Source: Parcubacteria group bacterium Greene0416_36 (lineage in GTDB: Bacteria > Patescibacteriota > Patescibacteriia > VMEV01). Taken from it: a DNA stretch of 64,000 nt. The notes beneath the pieces were generated by a model. That model did no database searches. It was not told the DNA's origin and saw nothing but the letters and a program-made list of their open reading frames with translations. Below are positions 13,496 to 21,972 of the stretch, in pieces; the stretch's first letter is position 1, and every line of letters starts with the position of its first letter. The DNA is taken from assembly GCA_007375725.1 (NCBI GenBank), contig VMEV01000006.1:6929-70928 (forward strand), read 5' to 3'. The position numbers were made by a program, and so were the translations under genes.

Positions 13496-14332
13496 TTATT
13501 TAGTATTTAAAAGCTCTTTGCATTCTTTGATGGCCCGGATCACTTCGTCTTTTTTGGCTGGCAGATTTTGAGATAATGTCACGGGGTCCTGTCTGGCCAG
13601 CTGTGAACAGAGCATGATATTTTGTTCAGAAAGAGTCCGTATCGTATGAGTGGAGAGATTATCCAGAATAGTGACGGGATACATGAGCTGAAGATCGATC
13701 ATTTGAGCGAAGGTGCGCTCATGGGGGTGGTTCCATCCAATCATGACCATGTTTTTGCAGTGGCCATACTTGAGGGATTGTTCGGAGAATTTAGCATTGG
13801 TCACGATCCAAACTTCGTCGAAATGAGGGCAAAGGCCGATGCGGTTGCCGTCGATCAAATCCATGTATCGCGCCCAAGTGGACATAGTGTCCTTGATCCC
13901 GATGAAGTCTGATGGATTGTGGCGGAACTTCGCCTCGATCATGGCCGTCCGGCCGTCTTTCTCAACCGTGACATCCACTTCATGTGTCACGCAGGCCCCC
14001 TGCAGATCTCCCGGGAGATCTGCCTTGTATCCATAGGCTGTGAGCACCGCCGCGACATATTTTTCAAAATCAAATCCCGTGGGCCCGAGGCGCAAAATCG
14101 CACTGCGGAGATTATATTTTTTGGCCAGAATCGGATGTTCTCTCCGCAAAATATGATTGAGTTCTTGTGACAATTCCCACGAGAAAATTTTCCGCCCCAA
14201 GAATTTTTTCTCCAGCTGGGCGGATATATGATTAATCGTCTCGGTCGGCGCACCCAATTTGATTAGGATTTTGGACATTTTATCTTTGGAGAAATTTTCG
14301 ATTTGTCCGTTGTTTTTGATGATGGTAAACAT
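13496..14332 (-). CDS. ATP-cone domain fused to Mrr-like PD-(D/E)xK restriction-endonuclease domain
   Basis: N-terminal MFTIIKNNGQIENFSKDKMSKILIKLG...ILAKKYNLRSAI fits ATP-cone. C-terminal FEKYVAAVLTAYGYKADLPGDLQGACVTHEVDVTVEKDGRTAMIEAKF fits the Mrr catalytic core (D..EAK). ORF is open to 14452, but the ATG at 14332 starts exactly at the ATP-cone. Confidence 0.65.
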   Translation of the reverse strand: MFTIIKNNGQIENFSKDKMSKILIKLGAPTETINHISAQLEKKFLGRKIFSWELSQELNHILRREHPILAKKYNLRSAILRLGPTGFDFEKYVAAVLTAYGYKADLPGDLQGACVTHEVDVTVEKDGRTAMIEAKFRHNPSDFIGIKDTMSTWARYMDLIDGNRIGLCPHFDEVWIVTNAKFSEQSLKYGHCKNMVMIGWNHPHERTFAQMIDLQLMYPVTILDNLSTHTIRTLSEQNIMLCSQLARQDPVTLSQNLPAKKDEVIRAIKECKELLNTK

Positions 14333-14341
14333 AGAGCTAGT

Positions 14342-14376
14342 TGAGTAGTGGGTAGGGAGTAGTGAGTAGGTAATAA
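14342..14376. repeat. Heptamer direct repeats (TGAGTAG/TGGGTAG x4-5) in the 5' leader of the ATP-cone nuclease gene
   Basis: tgagtag tgggtag ggagtag tgagtag gtaataa, immediately 5' of the start codon on the minus strand. Confidence 0.6.
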
Positions 14377-14539
14377 GGAGGGCGATGGGGATGGCTGTCA
14401 TCCTGAGCCTGTCGAAGGATCTCATGTGAGAAATCAATATTACCCAATTCATTCATATTACCAAATTGAAGGGCTCTTTGAAAACAAAAAATTGCCTCCG
14501 TTCGGGCAATTTGAGAATAGTTTTTTGCGTGACCCATAT

Positions 14540-14888: not shown

Positions 14889-14962
14889 GCACTCGTAGCT
14901 CAACTGGATAGAGCGCAGGCCTCCGAAGCCTGAGGTTACAAGTTCGACCCTTGTCGAGTGCA
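14889..14962 (+). tRNA. tRNA-Arg (anticodon CCG)
   Basis: Acceptor stem GCACTCG/CGAGTGC. D-arm TAGCTCAACTGGATAGAGC. Anticodon loop CTCCGAA. T-arm ACAAGTTCGACCCTTGT. Discriminator A. Confidence 0.85.
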
Positions 14963-15060
14963 CCCCACTTCGCTCTTTTGTCCGGAATTAAAACGCTGTC
15001 AATTAATTTGACAGCGTTTTTGACGCGCGATAAAATTGAGAAAATATTTTTAGAAAAACT

Positions 15061-15807
15061 ATGCACCTCATACAAAAACAAATCCTAAAAATCGCCCAGG
15101 AGCGGAATCTTCGGGAACTGAGTCTTCGCGCAATCGGCGAGCTTATTGGCGAGCCGAATAGCCCGCAGAAGATCAAGCATCATATGGAGAGTCTCATGGC
15201 CAAGGGATTGCTTGTGGCGTCTGAAGATGGTCAGTCGATCACTCCCATGTCCACGACCATTGATCCGAAGTATCGGCTGGCATCGATTCCTATCTATGGC
15301 GCGGCCAATTGCGGGCAGGCGCTCGTATTTGCCCAAGATCATATTGAAGGGTATTTGAAGTTATCTTTCGGTATTCTCGGGCCCAAGAATCTCAAGAAAG
15401 TGGGGGATCTATTCGTACTCAAGGCGGCGGGAACCTCCATGAACCGTGCGGATATAAAAGGGAAGAGTATCGATGACGGCGATTTTGTGATTATCGAGAA
15501 GACGAGCGTGCAACCGGAAGACGGGGCGTATGTGGTCTCGATCATCGACGGCTCCGCCAATATCAAGAAGTTTTTCCACAATAAAGACGAGGGGCAAATT
15601 ATTCTCCTGTCCGAATCCACGCAAAATCACCCGCCGATTTATATTCATGAAAGCGATTATTCGGATTATGTGGTGTGCGGGCGGGTGATCGATGTGATGA
15701 AAAAGCCAGATGAGCTGTGTTTCGTGCGCAACAAGGCGGCTGAGGATATTTTTCGTCAACTGGGGCCAATTTCGAGGGGCGAATATGATTATTATGAAAA
15801 TTTATGA
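15061..15807 (+). CDS. LexA-like transcriptional repressor / S24 peptidase
   Basis: N-terminal LexA-type wHTH (LIQKQILKIAQERNLRELSLRAIGELIG...HMESLMAKGLL). S24 catalytic Ser in AAGTSMN and Lys in ANIKKF. About 50-aa C-terminal extension. Confidence 0.7.
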   Translation: MHLIQKQILKIAQERNLRELSLRAIGELIGEPNSPQKIKHHMESLMAKGLLVASEDGQSITPMSTTIDPKYRLASIPIYGAANCGQALVFAQDHIEGYLKLSFGILGPKNLKKVGDLFVLKAAGTSMNRADIKGKSIDDGDFVIIEKTSVQPEDGAYVVSIIDGSANIKKFFHNKDEGQIILLSESTQNHPPIYIHESDYSDYVVCGRVIDVMKKPDELCFVRNKAAEDIFRQLGPISRGEYDYYENL

Positions 15808-16157
15808 CAAATAAACTCGAACTCCAATTCGGCGATATTGTCTGGGCGGAGTTTGCTCCCAGCGTGGCGCACCGTTATCAGGATAAGAGGCTCGCGGTTG
15901 TGATTCAATCAGCCAAACCACTCGAAAAATCGCGCCTGGTGACCGTGATTCCGCTCTCATCTCTCGTCGAGGAAAAAGGCGAGGACGATATCATGATTTT
16001 CGCCGACCTAAAAAACAAACTCAAACAAGACGCCATCGCCAAGGTCTATTGCATCTCCTCCTTCGATCACTCCCGTTTCACCAAGAAAATCGGCTCGGTC
16101 AGCCCCAAGGTTTCAGCGGATATTAAAAAATATTTGGAGAGGCATTTTGGGATTTAG
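15804..16157 (+). CDS. PemK/MazF-family toxin (putative endoribonuclease)
   Basis: GDIVWAEFAPSVAHRYQDKRLAVVIQS matches the PemK/MazF N-terminal signature. ATGA start/stop overlap with the upstream LexA-like gene. Confidence 0.65.
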   Translation: MTNKLELQFGDIVWAEFAPSVAHRYQDKRLAVVIQSAKPLEKSRLVTVIPLSSLVEEKGEDDIMIFADLKNKLKQDAIAKVYCISSFDHSRFTKKIGSVSPKVSADIKKYLERHFGI

Positions 16158-16179
16158 TTAAAAATTATTTTTTTGTTCT

Positions 16180-17193
16180 ATGATTAAAAATACTGAGCCG
16201 ACAAAAGGGGAAATTCTTATATATCAAACATCGCCCAATGAGCCCCAAATTGAAATCAAAATTGAAAGGGAAACTATTTGGTTAACCTTAAATCAGATTG
16301 CTGAATTGTTTGATGTAGATAAATCAGGTGTTTCTCGCCACATAAAGAATGTTTTTAAATCTAAGGAATTGCAAAAAGAGGCAACTGTTGCAAATTTTGC
16401 AACAGTTCAAAAAGAAGGGGGTAGGCTCCTGAATCGTACTATTGAATACTATAATTTGGATGCCATTGTTTCTGTTGGATACCGCATTAATTCGAAGAAA
16501 GGTACTCAATTCCGTATCTGGGCTAGTCAAATATTAAAGGATCATCTCGTAAAAGGCTTCACACTCAACCCAAAACGGCTTTCTCAAACCGGCCTTGGTG
16601 AATTTGAAAGAGCGCTTCGTCTTATTAAAAGCACGATTGATTCCAAAGACCTTACTGCCGGTGAGGCTAAAGGCATTTTAGATGTGATCACATCCTATGC
16701 GAATTCATGGGTTCTTCTTCAGAAATATGATGAGGGAAGTATTGGGGCTCCAAAGAAGAAAACAACTCCCTCATTCAAACTAGATTATGGAATAGCTAAA
16801 AAGGCAATCAAAAATCTCAAAGAAGATTTGTTGGATAAACAATCTGCTACTGAATTGTTTGGTGCTGAGCGAGATAAAATGCTTGAGGGCGTGTTGGGCA
16901 GTATTTACCAAACCTTTGCCAAAAAAGAGGTTTACCCTAGTATCGAAGAAAAAGCCGCGCATTTACTTTATTTCATTATAAAAGACCACCCCTTCTCTGA
17001 TGGAAACAAGCGCATCGGCGCCTTCCTCTTCATTTATTTTCTCCAGGAAAATAAATATCTCTACAACCAGCAATCCGAGCGAAAAATTAACGATAATGCC
17101 CTCGTCGCTTTGGCCCTCCTCATCGCCCAAAGTGATCCCAAGGAGAAAGAGGTGATGATCAAATTAGTTATGCATTTTTTGGGGAATAGATAA
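16180..17193 (+). CDS. RhuM-family N-terminal domain fused to Doc/Fic domain
   Basis: IWLTLNQIAELFDVDKSGVSRHIKNVF...HYNLDAIVSVGYRINSKKGTQFRIWASQ matches RhuM. C-terminal HPFSDGNKRIGAF is the Doc-type Fic motif (HxFxDGNKR). Confidence 0.65.
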   Translation: MIKNTEPTKGEILIYQTSPNEPQIEIKIERETIWLTLNQIAELFDVDKSGVSRHIKNVFKSKELQKEATVANFATVQKEGGRLLNRTIEYYNLDAIVSVGYRINSKKGTQFRIWASQILKDHLVKGFTLNPKRLSQTGLGEFERALRLIKSTIDSKDLTAGEAKGILDVITSYANSWVLLQKYDEGSIGAPKKKTTPSFKLDYGIAKKAIKNLKEDLLDKQSATELFGAERDKMLEGVLGSIYQTFAKKEVYPSIEEKAAHLLYFIIKDHPFSDGNKRIGAFLFIYFLQENKYLYNQQSERKINDNALVALALLIAQSDPKEKEVMIKLVMHFLGNR

Positions 17194-17220
17194 GAAAACA
17201 GGACGTGATTTATATTGTTA

Positions 17221-17290
17221 TCGTAGGGGCGTACCTGTGTGTGCGCCCTCAACGTGTTGTGTGGGCAGGCCCACAGGCCTGCCCCTACAC
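17221..17290. repeat. GC-rich palindromic element related to family P1 (gtaggggc...gcccctac)
   Basis: cgtaggggcgtacctgtgtgtgcgccctcaacg...gggcaggcccacaggcctgcccctacac. Followed at 17349-17385 by an AT hairpin plus T-run terminator. Confidence 0.6.
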
Positions 17291-17414
17291 AAAAACGAGC
17301 TATCCAGAATTTCCGGATAGCTCGAAAACCGCCCCTAGAACAACAACAACCTAATTGAATTAATCAAATTAGGTTGCGTTTTTTTGTTTGGGTTTCGGAA
17401 AAAAGTTGGGGGCT

Positions 17415-20858: not shown

Positions 20859-21437
20859 ATGAGCCTAGAAAAGGCATTGCAGTCCTTAGTCGAAGCCAAA
20901 AATATCAAATATTTTGGTCGACTCATTACAAGATATGATAGTAGTTTCTATCTTATCTCTCGAGAAATCGAGAATTTTCGAGATCTTCTTTCTTGGTTTA
21001 TAGATCCTCGTGACCATTTTGATGGGCCAGAATGGATGATTTGGTCATCTAATTGTGAGGATATGGCAGATTTTCTTACTCGCATAAAAGGTTATCTTCC
21101 TATTAAATCTGTGGATACAGTAGTTCTAAATCAGCAAATCATTTTTTTTCAAGATGCAAAAGAAAAGTTTATTCAACTGGTTTGTGTTGATCAAGATTCT
21201 TATTTTGGGGATCGGGAAGAAGGAATAGATATCTTTTGGGGGGTAATAAAAGACATAGACAGAACTTTCTGTGAATTCCTATATGAGTGGTTACCGATTT
21301 TGTCAGATGATGACATTGACGAATTCAAAGAAGCCAAAACAAAAAGAGAAAAAAAGGAGATAATGGGCGCGATTCAATCCAATATAGAAGAGATTTTAAA
21401 GTACTGGAATATTTGGGGTTTTGTCGATAGCAACTAA
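20859..21437 (+). CDS. Hypothetical protein (192 aa), no recognisable domain, low-GC
   Basis: Acidic protein. Flanked by AT-rich DNA. Convergent with a minimal nucleotidyltransferase gene. Confidence 0.4.
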   Translation: MSLEKALQSLVEAKNIKYFGRLITRYDSSFYLISREIENFRDLLSWFIDPRDHFDGPEWMIWSSNCEDMADFLTRIKGYLPIKSVDTVVLNQQIIFFQDAKEKFIQLVCVDQDSYFGDREEGIDIFWGVIKDIDRTFCEFLYEWLPILSDDDIDEFKEAKTKREKKEIMGAIQSNIEEILKYWNIWGFVDSN

Positions 21438-21564: not shown

Positions 21565-21972
21565 TTAAACACACATATACTCCATTTTAGCCACCCGGTC
21601 ATGATAAAATTTGAGAATATTAAATTCAAACTCCACCCGCGCGTCATCATCGTGATTATATAAAATATGACCATCTTTGAGGATTTCAAATTTAAATGAT
21701 AAAGGCAATTGATCGTCCAAGATAATAACTTCTACATCCTCGCGTCCCATCATCGTACTTAAAAGATCCATCAATTTTAAACGAATTTTTAAATAATCGG
21801 GAGATTTTTTCATCTTCTTGTCCAAAAGCACAGCAAAATCAACATCACTCCGCGCCTCAGCATCTCCCCTTGCCTGCGAGCTAAAAAGATAGACGACAAT
21901 AACTCCCAATCTCTTGAGGTCAGGCGAGAAAGTTTCTAGTTGCTTTTCTAATTTTTTCAGAAATTTCTGCAT
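21565..21972 (-). CDS. Minimal nucleotidyltransferase (Pol-beta superfamily MNT)
   Basis: GVIVVYLFSSQARGDAEARSDVDFAVLL matches GS-x9-13-DxD. No HEPN partner is visible. Confidence 0.65.
   Translation of the reverse strand: MQKFLKKLEKQLETFSPDLKRLGVIVVYLFSSQARGDAEARSDVDFAVLLDKKMKKSPDYLKIRLKLMDLLSTMMGREDVEVIILDDQLPLSFKFEILKDGHILYNHDDDARVEFEFNILKFYHDRVAKMEYMCV

Follow-up and report, generated by a model that had tools for sequence, protein, structure and literature searches.

How is a MazF toxin kept in check when its gene directly follows that of a LexA-type repressor and no small antitoxin gene accompanies it? This question is raised by a locus of Parcubacteria group bacterium Greene0416_36 (contig VMEV01000006.1 of assembly GCA_007375725.1, a metagenome-assembled genome), located at positions 14889-17400 of the 64,000-nt stretch of DNA analysed in this study (referred to below as the window). 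Three co-directional open reading frames (ORFs) of the plus strand encode a LexA-like repressor of 248 amino acids (aa; 15061-15807), a MazF/PemK-family toxin of 117 aa (15804-16157) and a RhuM/Fic/DOC family protein of 337 aa (16180-17193). The stop codon of the LexA-like gene and the start codon of mazF share the sequence ATGA, an overlap by which the toxin gene is predicted to be translationally coupled to the repressor gene. The ORF list of the 14889-17400 stretch contains neither a small antitoxin ORF nor an integrase, and a search of the window revealed no other antitoxin candidate within the lexA-mazF operon. The three genes with their domains, the ATGA overlap and the lack of an integrase and of a conventional small antitoxin had all been described in the original prediction, and they were borne out by the Pfam and NCBIfam matches and by the ORF list with its coordinates. 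We consider it probable that the locus represents a toxin-antitoxin module of type II whose antitoxin is the organism's LexA-type repressor itself, and a C-terminal tail of the repressor very probably binds and neutralises MazF. That the repressor might be the antitoxin or controller of the toxin, an architecture not standard for type II modules, had been proposed before and is strongly supported by comparative evidence; the C-terminal extension had been noted, but not connected with this role.

The tail (residues 217-248, DELCFVRNKAAEDIFRQLGPISRGEYDYYENL, encoded at 15709-15804 of the plus strand) is the proposed MazF-neutralising element. It starts where Escherichia coli LexA ends, as that end corresponds to family position ~217 in a profile alignment. 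The C-terminal extension noted originally is therefore present, although it amounts to approximately 32 aa and not to 50. The tail is acidic, follows the pattern ...D.lK.LGp.SkeE.dYY.NL (across loci, the consensus is ...KKPDEL..a.DiLk.LGpiSkEE.dYYeNL) and was modelled as two helices (residues 220-234 and 239-247), with a lower confidence (pLDDT ~67) than the rest of the protein. An internal start yielding a separate tail peptide is unlikely, since Met213 is not conserved, and an assembly or frameshift artefact was excluded by the presence of the same architecture in more than 50 independent assemblies.

Whether the gene pair recurs in other genomes was analysed in 80 related species-level genomic loci, 37 of which (36 of them assessable) carry a LexA-like gene with the acidic tail. 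A mazF gene of the same subfamily was found directly downstream of the acidic-tail genes in 34 of the 36 assessable loci, mostly with the 4-nt overlap, so that the recurrence of the pair was confirmed. In contrast, MazF accompanied none of the 36 tail-less LexA genes (208-227 aa), anywhere in approximately 12 kb, and was never the next gene (0/4) where the tail ends in a diverged, lysine-rich (basic) sequence. In a crude neighbour-joining tree the basic-tail clade, with a homologous tail start and no MazF, is nested inside a tail-bearing clade, and it appears to have lost MazF and the terminal motif together. The LexA-like genes concerned (in loci L027, L032, L033 and L035, with ends at approximately 4391, 6750, 6741 and 6735, respectively) retain the tail start KKPEEF.DSSAGEILKYGKPI, while a lysine-rich stretch replaces ...EE.dYY.NL; this looks like decay or repurposing of the tail after loss of the toxin. 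The LexA-MazF pair has been kept over deep divergence, with identities of 44-60% for LexA and 32-58% for MazF.

The tail is also present on antitoxins of other kinds. With an alignment as the query, the MazF subfamily of the window was found to number at least 368 cluster representatives, whose annotations are those of ordinary PemK/MazF toxins (a word-indexed search with the window MazF sequence alone returned two proteins only). Four loci of this subfamily were sampled: in two of them mazF follows a LexA-like gene, and in the other two it follows a gene encoding an XRE-type helix-turn-helix (HTH) with a SocA/Panacea domain. These XRE-Panacea partners (~280 aa) show the identical 4-nt overlap with mazF and terminate in ...VWQEVAAKDTLKSLGKMSDKERDYYKNL and ...VWQDVAAGDTLKSLGEMSDKEYNYYKNL. 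A hidden Markov model of the tail, trained on LexA tails only, matched every assessable upstream partner of the close MazF relatives in loci L088-L121 (E values from 1e-6 to 1e-22; L114, with no upstream DNA, is outside this count), i.e. LexA-like proteins, XRE-Panacea proteins or Phd/YefM-like proteins of ~85 aa. The toxin-side scan of metagenomes was performed with a 111-aa MazF subclade, towards which the sample is biased. Remoter MazF relatives are accompanied by ordinary antitoxins of 70-100 aa with different acidic, aromatic tails.

When 1.84 billion representative proteins were searched exhaustively with a profile of the 36-residue tail, 137 carriers were found. They include (i) a RelB-domain antitoxin whose gene overlaps that of a 111-aa PemK protein following it, (ii) a MazE-domain antitoxin (P0356) followed by an overlapping gene cut by the contig end, and (iii) S24 fragments and many proteins of 40-60 aa, barely longer than the tail itself. 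MazE/AbrB can thus probably be counted among the tail-bearing scaffolds of this MazF subfamily. The group P0246-P0378 contains more than 100 cluster representatives of 40-100 aa, consisting of a short variable N-terminal part and the tail; some of these are perhaps fragments.

No gaps are needed to align the tails of three scaffolds (LexA-like, XRE-Panacea and Phd/YefM-like), and their net charge is about -4.5. When only pairs with different scaffolds were compared, tail identity was correlated with MazF identity (Spearman 0.30), a value reached in none of 2000 within-scaffold permutations, and for 10 of the 12 non-LexA pairs the LexA protein with the nearest tail has its MazF among the top 5 of 44. 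The sharing of the tail by several scaffolds and its co-variation with MazF point to a cassette of tail and toxin that moves and evolves as a unit. Taken together with the co-occurrence, they indicate that the tail is very probably the MazF-neutralising element. These data also bear on another explanation, in which MazF is simply SOS-regulated by virtue of its position in the lexA operon and is not contacted by LexA, being controlled by an unlinked antitoxin or tolerated at low expression, and the tail serves some other LexA-specific role. SOS-regulated toxin genes are indeed well known, e.g. yafNO (as cited in PMC7826846). Nevertheless, such purely transcriptional coupling seems very improbable to us, as it leaves unexplained the match between tail and MazF (34/36 versus 0/40), the same tail on RelB, Phd/YefM-like, MazE and XRE-Panacea antitoxins and the co-variation; moreover, no other MazF-family gene or tail carrier was found within the window.

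The body that carries the tail has the architecture of LexA, i.e. a winged helix-turn-helix at the N terminus (wHTH, residues ~1-60), a linker and an S24 autoprotease/dimerisation domain. The protein matched Peptidase_S24 (PF00717; E 1.3e-15, 57.6 bits versus a cutoff of 23.3), and its family profile aligned with E. coli LexA over residues 34-200 (E 5e-10), covering both domains. In this alignment Cys84-Gly85 (15310-15315) falls on the Ala84-Gly85 scissile bond of E. coli LexA, Ser126 (15436-15438) on Ser119 and Lys169 (15565-15567) on Lys156. Cys-Gly is the dipeptide cleaved in UmuD. The recognition region SPQKIKHH, the A-N-C-G motif, Ser126 and Lys169 are invariant across a 24-member alignment. 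In an AlphaFold model (pLDDT 81) the wHTH and the S24 beta-domain are accompanied by two helices at the terminus, and the nine top matches in a comparison with the PDB were full-length LexA proteins. Among the domain searches proposed originally, those for Peptidase_S24, PemK_toxin, Virulence_RhuM and Fic were positive, whereas Pfam LexA_DNA_bind (PF01726) gave no significant match to the window protein and is recorded for only three of its relatives. The wHTH was instead recognised from the profile alignment to LexA, which begins at residue 28, and from the fold of the model (three helices plus a wing).

The relatives identified number more than 1,500, essentially all of them in Patescibacteria (full-length identity 48-60%), and when one genome was scanned for each species, 217 genomes proved to encode the protein. 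The protein is LexA-like, a member of a divergent lineage-specific family and not of the curated equivalog. Its gene looks like the LexA orthologue of this lineage. It had been argued that the proposed coupling would lose its basis if the gene were the housekeeping lexA with an unrelated neighbour; the first half of this appears to apply, but the downstream gene is not unrelated. Motif searches for RecA, UvrA, Lon and ClpX within the window found nothing. Many contigs that carry a LexA of the Patescibacteria type are filed under other names, such as 'uncultured Gammaproteobacteria bacterium', 'Chitinophagaceae' and 'Chitinophaga pinensis' (L016, L040, L043, L045, L069, L072, L076, L079, L083 and others), which likely reflects taxonomic mislabelling or mis-binned contigs of metagenome-assembled genomes (MAGs).

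The 117-aa protein is clearly MazF-like, as predicted. It matched PemK_toxin with an E value of 6.6e-16 (58.9 bits versus a cutoff of 23.1), and its model (pLDDT 85) superimposes on MazF-mt1 and on the MazF proteins of Staphylococcus aureus, Bacillus subtilis and E. coli with template modelling (TM) scores of 0.82-0.87 and a root-mean-square deviation of ~2 Å, so that the lack of a MazF fold, which would have spoken against the prediction, does not apply. In a comparison with MazF of E. coli and B. subtilis, the conserved Arg-Pro-Ala and Thr-Ser positions of the family correspond to Arg29 and Thr52, the catalytic residues of the E. coli enzyme; alignment to a solved Mycobacterium tuberculosis MazF structure corroborates this register. 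Arg29 (15888-15890 in the window) is invariant in the family alignment and Thr52/Ser53 are at least 90% conserved; the window copy has Ser52-Ser53 at this catalytic position (15957-15962).

The region upstream of the LexA-like gene is a further line of evidence. The original prediction had pointed to 14963-15060 as the place for an SOS box or inverted repeat, and a perfect 13-nt inverted repeat, AAAACGCTGTCAA / TTGACAGCGTTTT with the core GTCAA-N5-TTGAC, is indeed present there at 14990-15020 (plus strand). The best promoter match of the region, a predicted sigma-70-type promoter (TTGACA-17 nt-TAAAAT; 15008-15036, plus strand; 11 of 12 consensus positions), lies 25 nt upstream of the ATG of the LexA-like gene, and the repeat overlaps its -35 box. 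The TTGACA(-35)...TATAAT layout recurs at most related loci. GTCAA...TTGAC was found upstream of 56 of the 80 LexA-like genes, including 32 of the 37 tail-bearing ones, as compared with 3.3% of other gene upstream regions and 0.7% of random windows. A count of palindromes upstream of lexA did not identify a single LexA box of fixed spacing, the conserved form being variable in this respect; the exact GTCAA-N5-TTGAC occurs only once in the window, which does not exceed the chance expectation genome-wide. The repeat is a plausible autoregulatory operator of LexA, and it may also terminate the transcript of the upstream tRNA gene. A motif scan of the related loci for a regulon retrieved mainly the divergent neighbours of lexA and alternative starts, with no recA or uvrA. 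One divergent neighbour (L012, minus strand, ORF start at ~5901, 180 aa) shares the GTCAA...TTGAC region with the LexA-like gene and encodes a sequence judged by eye to be Panacea-like (…NKLLYYLDFIYFRDHKKTVTG…GYGPVP).

These features suggest how the module might operate. A LexA dimer bound to the GTCAA...TTGAC operator over its own -35 box would repress lexA-mazF(-rhuM/doc), such autoregulation being inferred from the inverted repeat, and two LexA tails would hold and inhibit the co-translated MazF endoribonuclease. The antitoxin would have a modular layout, with the wHTH, the S24 domain at the sensor or accessory position and the 32-aa neutraliser. RecA filaments on single-stranded DNA (ssDNA), formed upon DNA damage or phage replication, could then stimulate self-cleavage at Cys84-Gly85, which would detach the DNA-binding domain and derepress the operon and, in all probability, the other members of the LexA regulon. 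The remaining S24-tail fragment would become a protease substrate, and the freed MazF would cut RNA and arrest translation, with an SOS checkpoint or an abortive-infection response as the outcome. Both the RecA dependence of cleavage in this lineage and the release of MazF after cleavage are speculative. In its broadest form this proposal would mean that in much of Patescibacteria the master SOS repressor is physically the MazF antitoxin, so that one RecA-triggered self-cleavage event both derepresses the regulon and, after degradation of the S24-tail fragment, releases an RNase that halts translation, LexA itself thus containing a protein-level SOS checkpoint or abortive-infection switch; we advance it as a tentative possibility, which may well prove not to hold.

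An alternative view is that tail and MazF are a selfish or defensive cassette which recombination joined to the 3' end of lexA. The tail would still neutralise the toxin, but self-cleavage and DNA damage would be irrelevant: LexA would contribute only DNA binding, dimerisation and a promoter, and MazF would be released by ordinary antitoxin turnover or by a phage cue in the manner of Panacea. The mobility of tail and MazF over at least five scaffolds, with co-variation across them, fits this view, as do the two separate tail-bearing clades of LexA (see below), the retention of the tail on the S24 fragment after self-cleavage and the defence-island or cargo flavour of the RhuM/Doc, Bro-N, KilA-N and DinD-like genes found downstream. 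However, the catalytic Ser/Lys pair and the Cys-Gly site are invariant in the tail-bearing members, which suggests that self-cleavage has been maintained, and the preservation of the pairing over deep divergence favours integration with LexA function over transient hitch-hiking. Furthermore, in E. coli both LexA cleavage fragments are rapidly degraded, which also counts against a cassette indifferent to cleavage. We regard this alternative as rather unlikely.

Several observations weigh against LexA being a functional, damage-responsive antitoxin of MazF. The LexA-like protein scores below the cutoff of the TIGR00498 lexA equivalog (65.2 versus 110.95 bits), and we infer the binding of its tail to MazF from comparative data alone. 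Since the LexA core tree (crude neighbour-joining) contains two separate tail+MazF clades, most of the 34-versus-0 contrast goes back to a few ancient events; the association appears to rest on several events, far fewer than 34. Two loci have the tail without an intact MazF (in L010 a DinD-like gene is found there, and L014 retains a 42-aa MazF remnant), and P0258 (L176:780-917) is a complete 45-aa ORF composed of the tail only, with no MazF gene after it. Such tail-only proteins are possibly orphan or trans-acting anti-MazF peptides. As for the mechanism, the tail stays on the dimeric S24 fragment after self-cleavage, so that release of MazF needs further proteolysis, and some LexA-like proteins self-cleave independently of RecA, as stated in PMC7101444. 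Finally, four sites with at least 90% conservation in the family are changed in the window MazF (G22A, E24R, P30L and T52S). The second of these falls on Glu24 of E. coli MazF, whose E24A form has been crystallised and was among the structure matches. We take this E24A form to be an attenuated mutant, and the E24R change at the same position means that the window copy of MazF may be weakened.

The same deviations, together with the losses in relatives (the L014 remnant and the replacement gene of L010), would be expected if the module were decaying in this genome, i.e. if MazF were attenuated or dead and the pair persisted as a LexA accessory or co-repressor without a toxin function. This is improbable in our opinion, because the ORF is intact, of full length and shared unchanged by four deposited MAGs and several metagenomes, Arg29 is kept and position 52/53 still bears a hydroxyl residue, the tail and the 4-nt overlap are intact, and the model folds confidently as MazF. 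The tail of the window protein is also slightly off consensus (DIFRQLGPISRGE versus D.lK.LGp.SkeE). The deviations of MazF and tail could represent compensatory co-evolution or attenuation of the toxin.

If LexA acts as proposed, it is probably best described as a chimeric antitoxin, and the locus as a MazEF-like type II module with a LexA-bodied antitoxin. As in the MazE-MazF systems of E. coli, B. subtilis and M. tuberculosis, an upstream antitoxin gene appears translationally coupled to that of a MazF-fold RNase, an N-terminal part serves DNA binding and dimerisation, the toxin is expected to be occupied by an acidic, aromatic segment at the C terminus, and autoregulation at the promoter is likely; a protein with a MazE (AbrB) domain and this very tail exists (P0356). 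The differences are that the body of the LexA antitoxin has 216 residues, as opposed to an AbrB-type domain of ~50 residues, and that its destruction could be self-inflicted and signal-dependent, and not due to Lon/ClpXP alone.

The closest parallel in domain layout is found in the PanA antitoxins (Kurata 2022, PMC8832971; PMC10440598), in which an HTH and a globular accessory domain are likewise followed by a two-helix neutraliser at the C terminus, and XRE-Panacea proteins bearing the tail described here are alternative partners of the same MazF subfamily. In PanA of Corynebacterium doosanense the two-helix neutraliser (Phd-C) was demonstrated experimentally and is shared with a small classical antitoxin (PMC10440598), while the accessory domain of such Panacea antitoxins is globular and non-neutralising (Ernits 2023, PMC10440598); a sensor role, with an unknown cue, is favoured by the authors who characterised it (PMC10440598). 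The window protein is not a member of PanAT, as it has no PF13274 (SocA/Panacea) match and carries S24 at the corresponding position. In characterised systems the cue of S24/LexA is RecA-ssDNA. Neither LexA nor S24 is mentioned in the two Panacea/NetFlax papers (PMC8832971, PMC10440598).

With LexA and LexA-like repressors (E. coli LexA, HdiR, UmuDAb and the non-canonical Bacteroidetes LexA, PMC8565304) the window protein shares the wHTH and S24 domains, the Ser/Lys dyad, a putative cleavage site at the homologous position, an operator that looks autoregulatory and a wide, apparently vertical spread within one superphylum. It differs from them in its 32-aa tail, which is absent from characterised LexA proteins, in the overlap of its stop codon with a toxin gene and in the Cys-Gly site.

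Several toxin-antitoxin loci, i.e. tisB/istR, symE and dinJ-yafQ, are SOS-regulated. In these and in yafNO, located downstream of dinB (as cited in PMC7826846), LexA and DNA damage govern the expression of the toxin, as is proposed here. There, however, LexA acts at the DNA only and the antitoxin is a separate protein or RNA, whereas in the window LexA itself appears to be the neutraliser. The searchable full-text literature, which does not cover the 2017 study of the SOS response in Patescibacteria (PubMed 28618189) that might mention the operon, does not describe any LexA or S24 protein that acts as the antitoxin of a MazF. It yielded only an S24-containing antitoxin predicted in Campylobacter and assigned there to an Xre/HipA module (PMC7826846). 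Among the PADLOC models, none represents the LexA-MazF pair.

This locus bears on how type II toxins are released and on what the accessory domains of large antitoxins sense. If our interpretation is correct, S24 would be the first 'sensor domain' of an antitoxin for which the molecular trigger is known, and since this trigger and its chemistry (RecA-ssDNA-stimulated self-cleavage) are known, the sensor-domain hypothesis is directly testable. The locus suggests that in the genome-reduced bacteria of the Candidate Phyla Radiation an SOS repressor and a growth-arrest effector form one physical complex; this would be a new wiring of DNA-damage or phage sensing to translation shutdown. The tail would amount to a short, portable peptide that neutralises MazF; it occurs on at least five scaffolds and is a possible tool for the control of MazF. 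It may also be useful in annotation, because the current labels of LexA proteins of this kind are 'uncharacterized' or 'S24 family peptidase' and the MazF proteins paired with them resemble orphan toxins. For instance, proteins identical to LexA, MazF and RhuM/Doc of the window are encoded on VMFY01000002.1 (GCA_007376335.1, 'Parcubacteria group bacterium Gr01-1014_18'), where they are annotated as 'Uncharacterized protein', 'mRNA interferase' and 'Fic/DOC family protein', respectively.

The third gene of the locus starts 22 nt past the end of mazF and, as there is no terminator in this gap, it is probably co-transcribed with the pair. Its product matched Virulence_RhuM (E 3e-25), Fic (E 7e-14) and, above the cutoff, DOC_P1 (42.8 versus 38.65). 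It contains the Doc-type motif HPFSDGNKR (residues 270-278; 16987-17013), which has the Doc-type form HxFxDGNKR and fits the Fic/Doc pattern HxFx(D/N)(A/G)NKR; unlike Doc of phage P1, the protein has no Phd partner. The protein also matched the PADLOC model PDC-S23 nearly end to end (E 6e-134, residues 9-335 of 337) and is 41-49% identical to the products of plasmid genes named 'virulence protein RhuM/Fic/DOC family protein' by NCBI. The predicted fusion of the two domains is thus real, but its emphasis was overstated, as this is the normal architecture of a catalogued family; PDC-S23 itself is a candidate defence system by association only. Within this family the window protein is an ordinary member, and its location after LexA-MazF is specific to this organism. 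RhuM/Doc was found near LexA in just 2 of the 80 loci, and the GC content of its gene (0.38-0.40) is lower than that of the LexA-MazF pair and of the neighbouring housekeeping genes (0.46-0.50). The rhuM/doc gene is variable cargo, outside the conserved LexA-MazF module.

The low GC content of rhuM/doc, its rarity near LexA in relatives, the frequent occurrence of its family on plasmids and the tRNA-Arg(CCG) gene directly upstream of the locus (14889-14964, detected by both ARAGORN and Rfam; the Rfam scan of the locus gave nothing else) are the features that could suggest a horizontally acquired islet with two orphan toxins, as was originally proposed. We give this explanation hardly any credence. 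The GC content of the LexA-MazF pair matches that of the neighbouring housekeeping genes, the pair is conserved in dozens of Patescibacteria lineages in varied contexts, and only 2 of the 41 related loci have a tRNA gene directly upstream, a different one in each. In addition, the stretch lacks an integrase and no direct repeats were seen. The LexA-MazF pair is vertically conserved and is not a tRNA-targeted islet.

Genes of the DinD-like, Bro-N, KilA-N-like and RhuM-like types recur right downstream of LexA or LexA-MazF in the related loci (L010:6757-7563, L092:2945-3787, L027:4491-5312, L032:6780-7793 and L033:6741-7841). The L010 example occupies the place of MazF and the L033 example overlaps the LexA stop codon. 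The domains of these genes were assigned by eye, except for L092 and the RhuM match of L033. This suggests a second recurrent link, between LexA and antirepressor-type or phage-type DNA-binding proteins.

The palindromes and terminator predicted downstream of the third gene were found in the intergenic region 17194-17395, which separates rhuM/doc from a convergent minus-strand gene of 184 aa and contains four consecutive strong hairpins (minimum free energy of -81.7 kcal/mol, z = -7.0, the T-run terminator included). One of them, CAACCTAATTGAATT/AATCAAATTAGGTTG followed by a T-run (17347-17390, plus strand), is the likely terminator of the lexA-mazF-rhuM/doc transcript. Two of the four are GC-rich palindromes (17223-17289) and unique within the window. 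No Rfam match was obtained for the hairpins of 17194-17395; some of them, the GC-rich pair aside, are probably bidirectional terminators.

Two other parts of the window contain genes of possible interest. At 21565-21972 (minus strand) a Polbeta/minimal nucleotidyltransferase of 135 aa is encoded (PF18765, E 4e-15), beside a 192-aa ORF without a Pfam match (20859-21437, plus strand); the former may be the antitoxin, of the MNT type, in a HEPN/MNT pair. A 318-aa protein encoded immediately before the tRNA gene, at 13496-14452 (minus strand), shows weak, sub-cutoff matches to the Mrr_cat restriction endonuclease, an AF1548-like C-terminal domain and ATP-cone, and may be a nuclease with a nucleotide-sensing domain.

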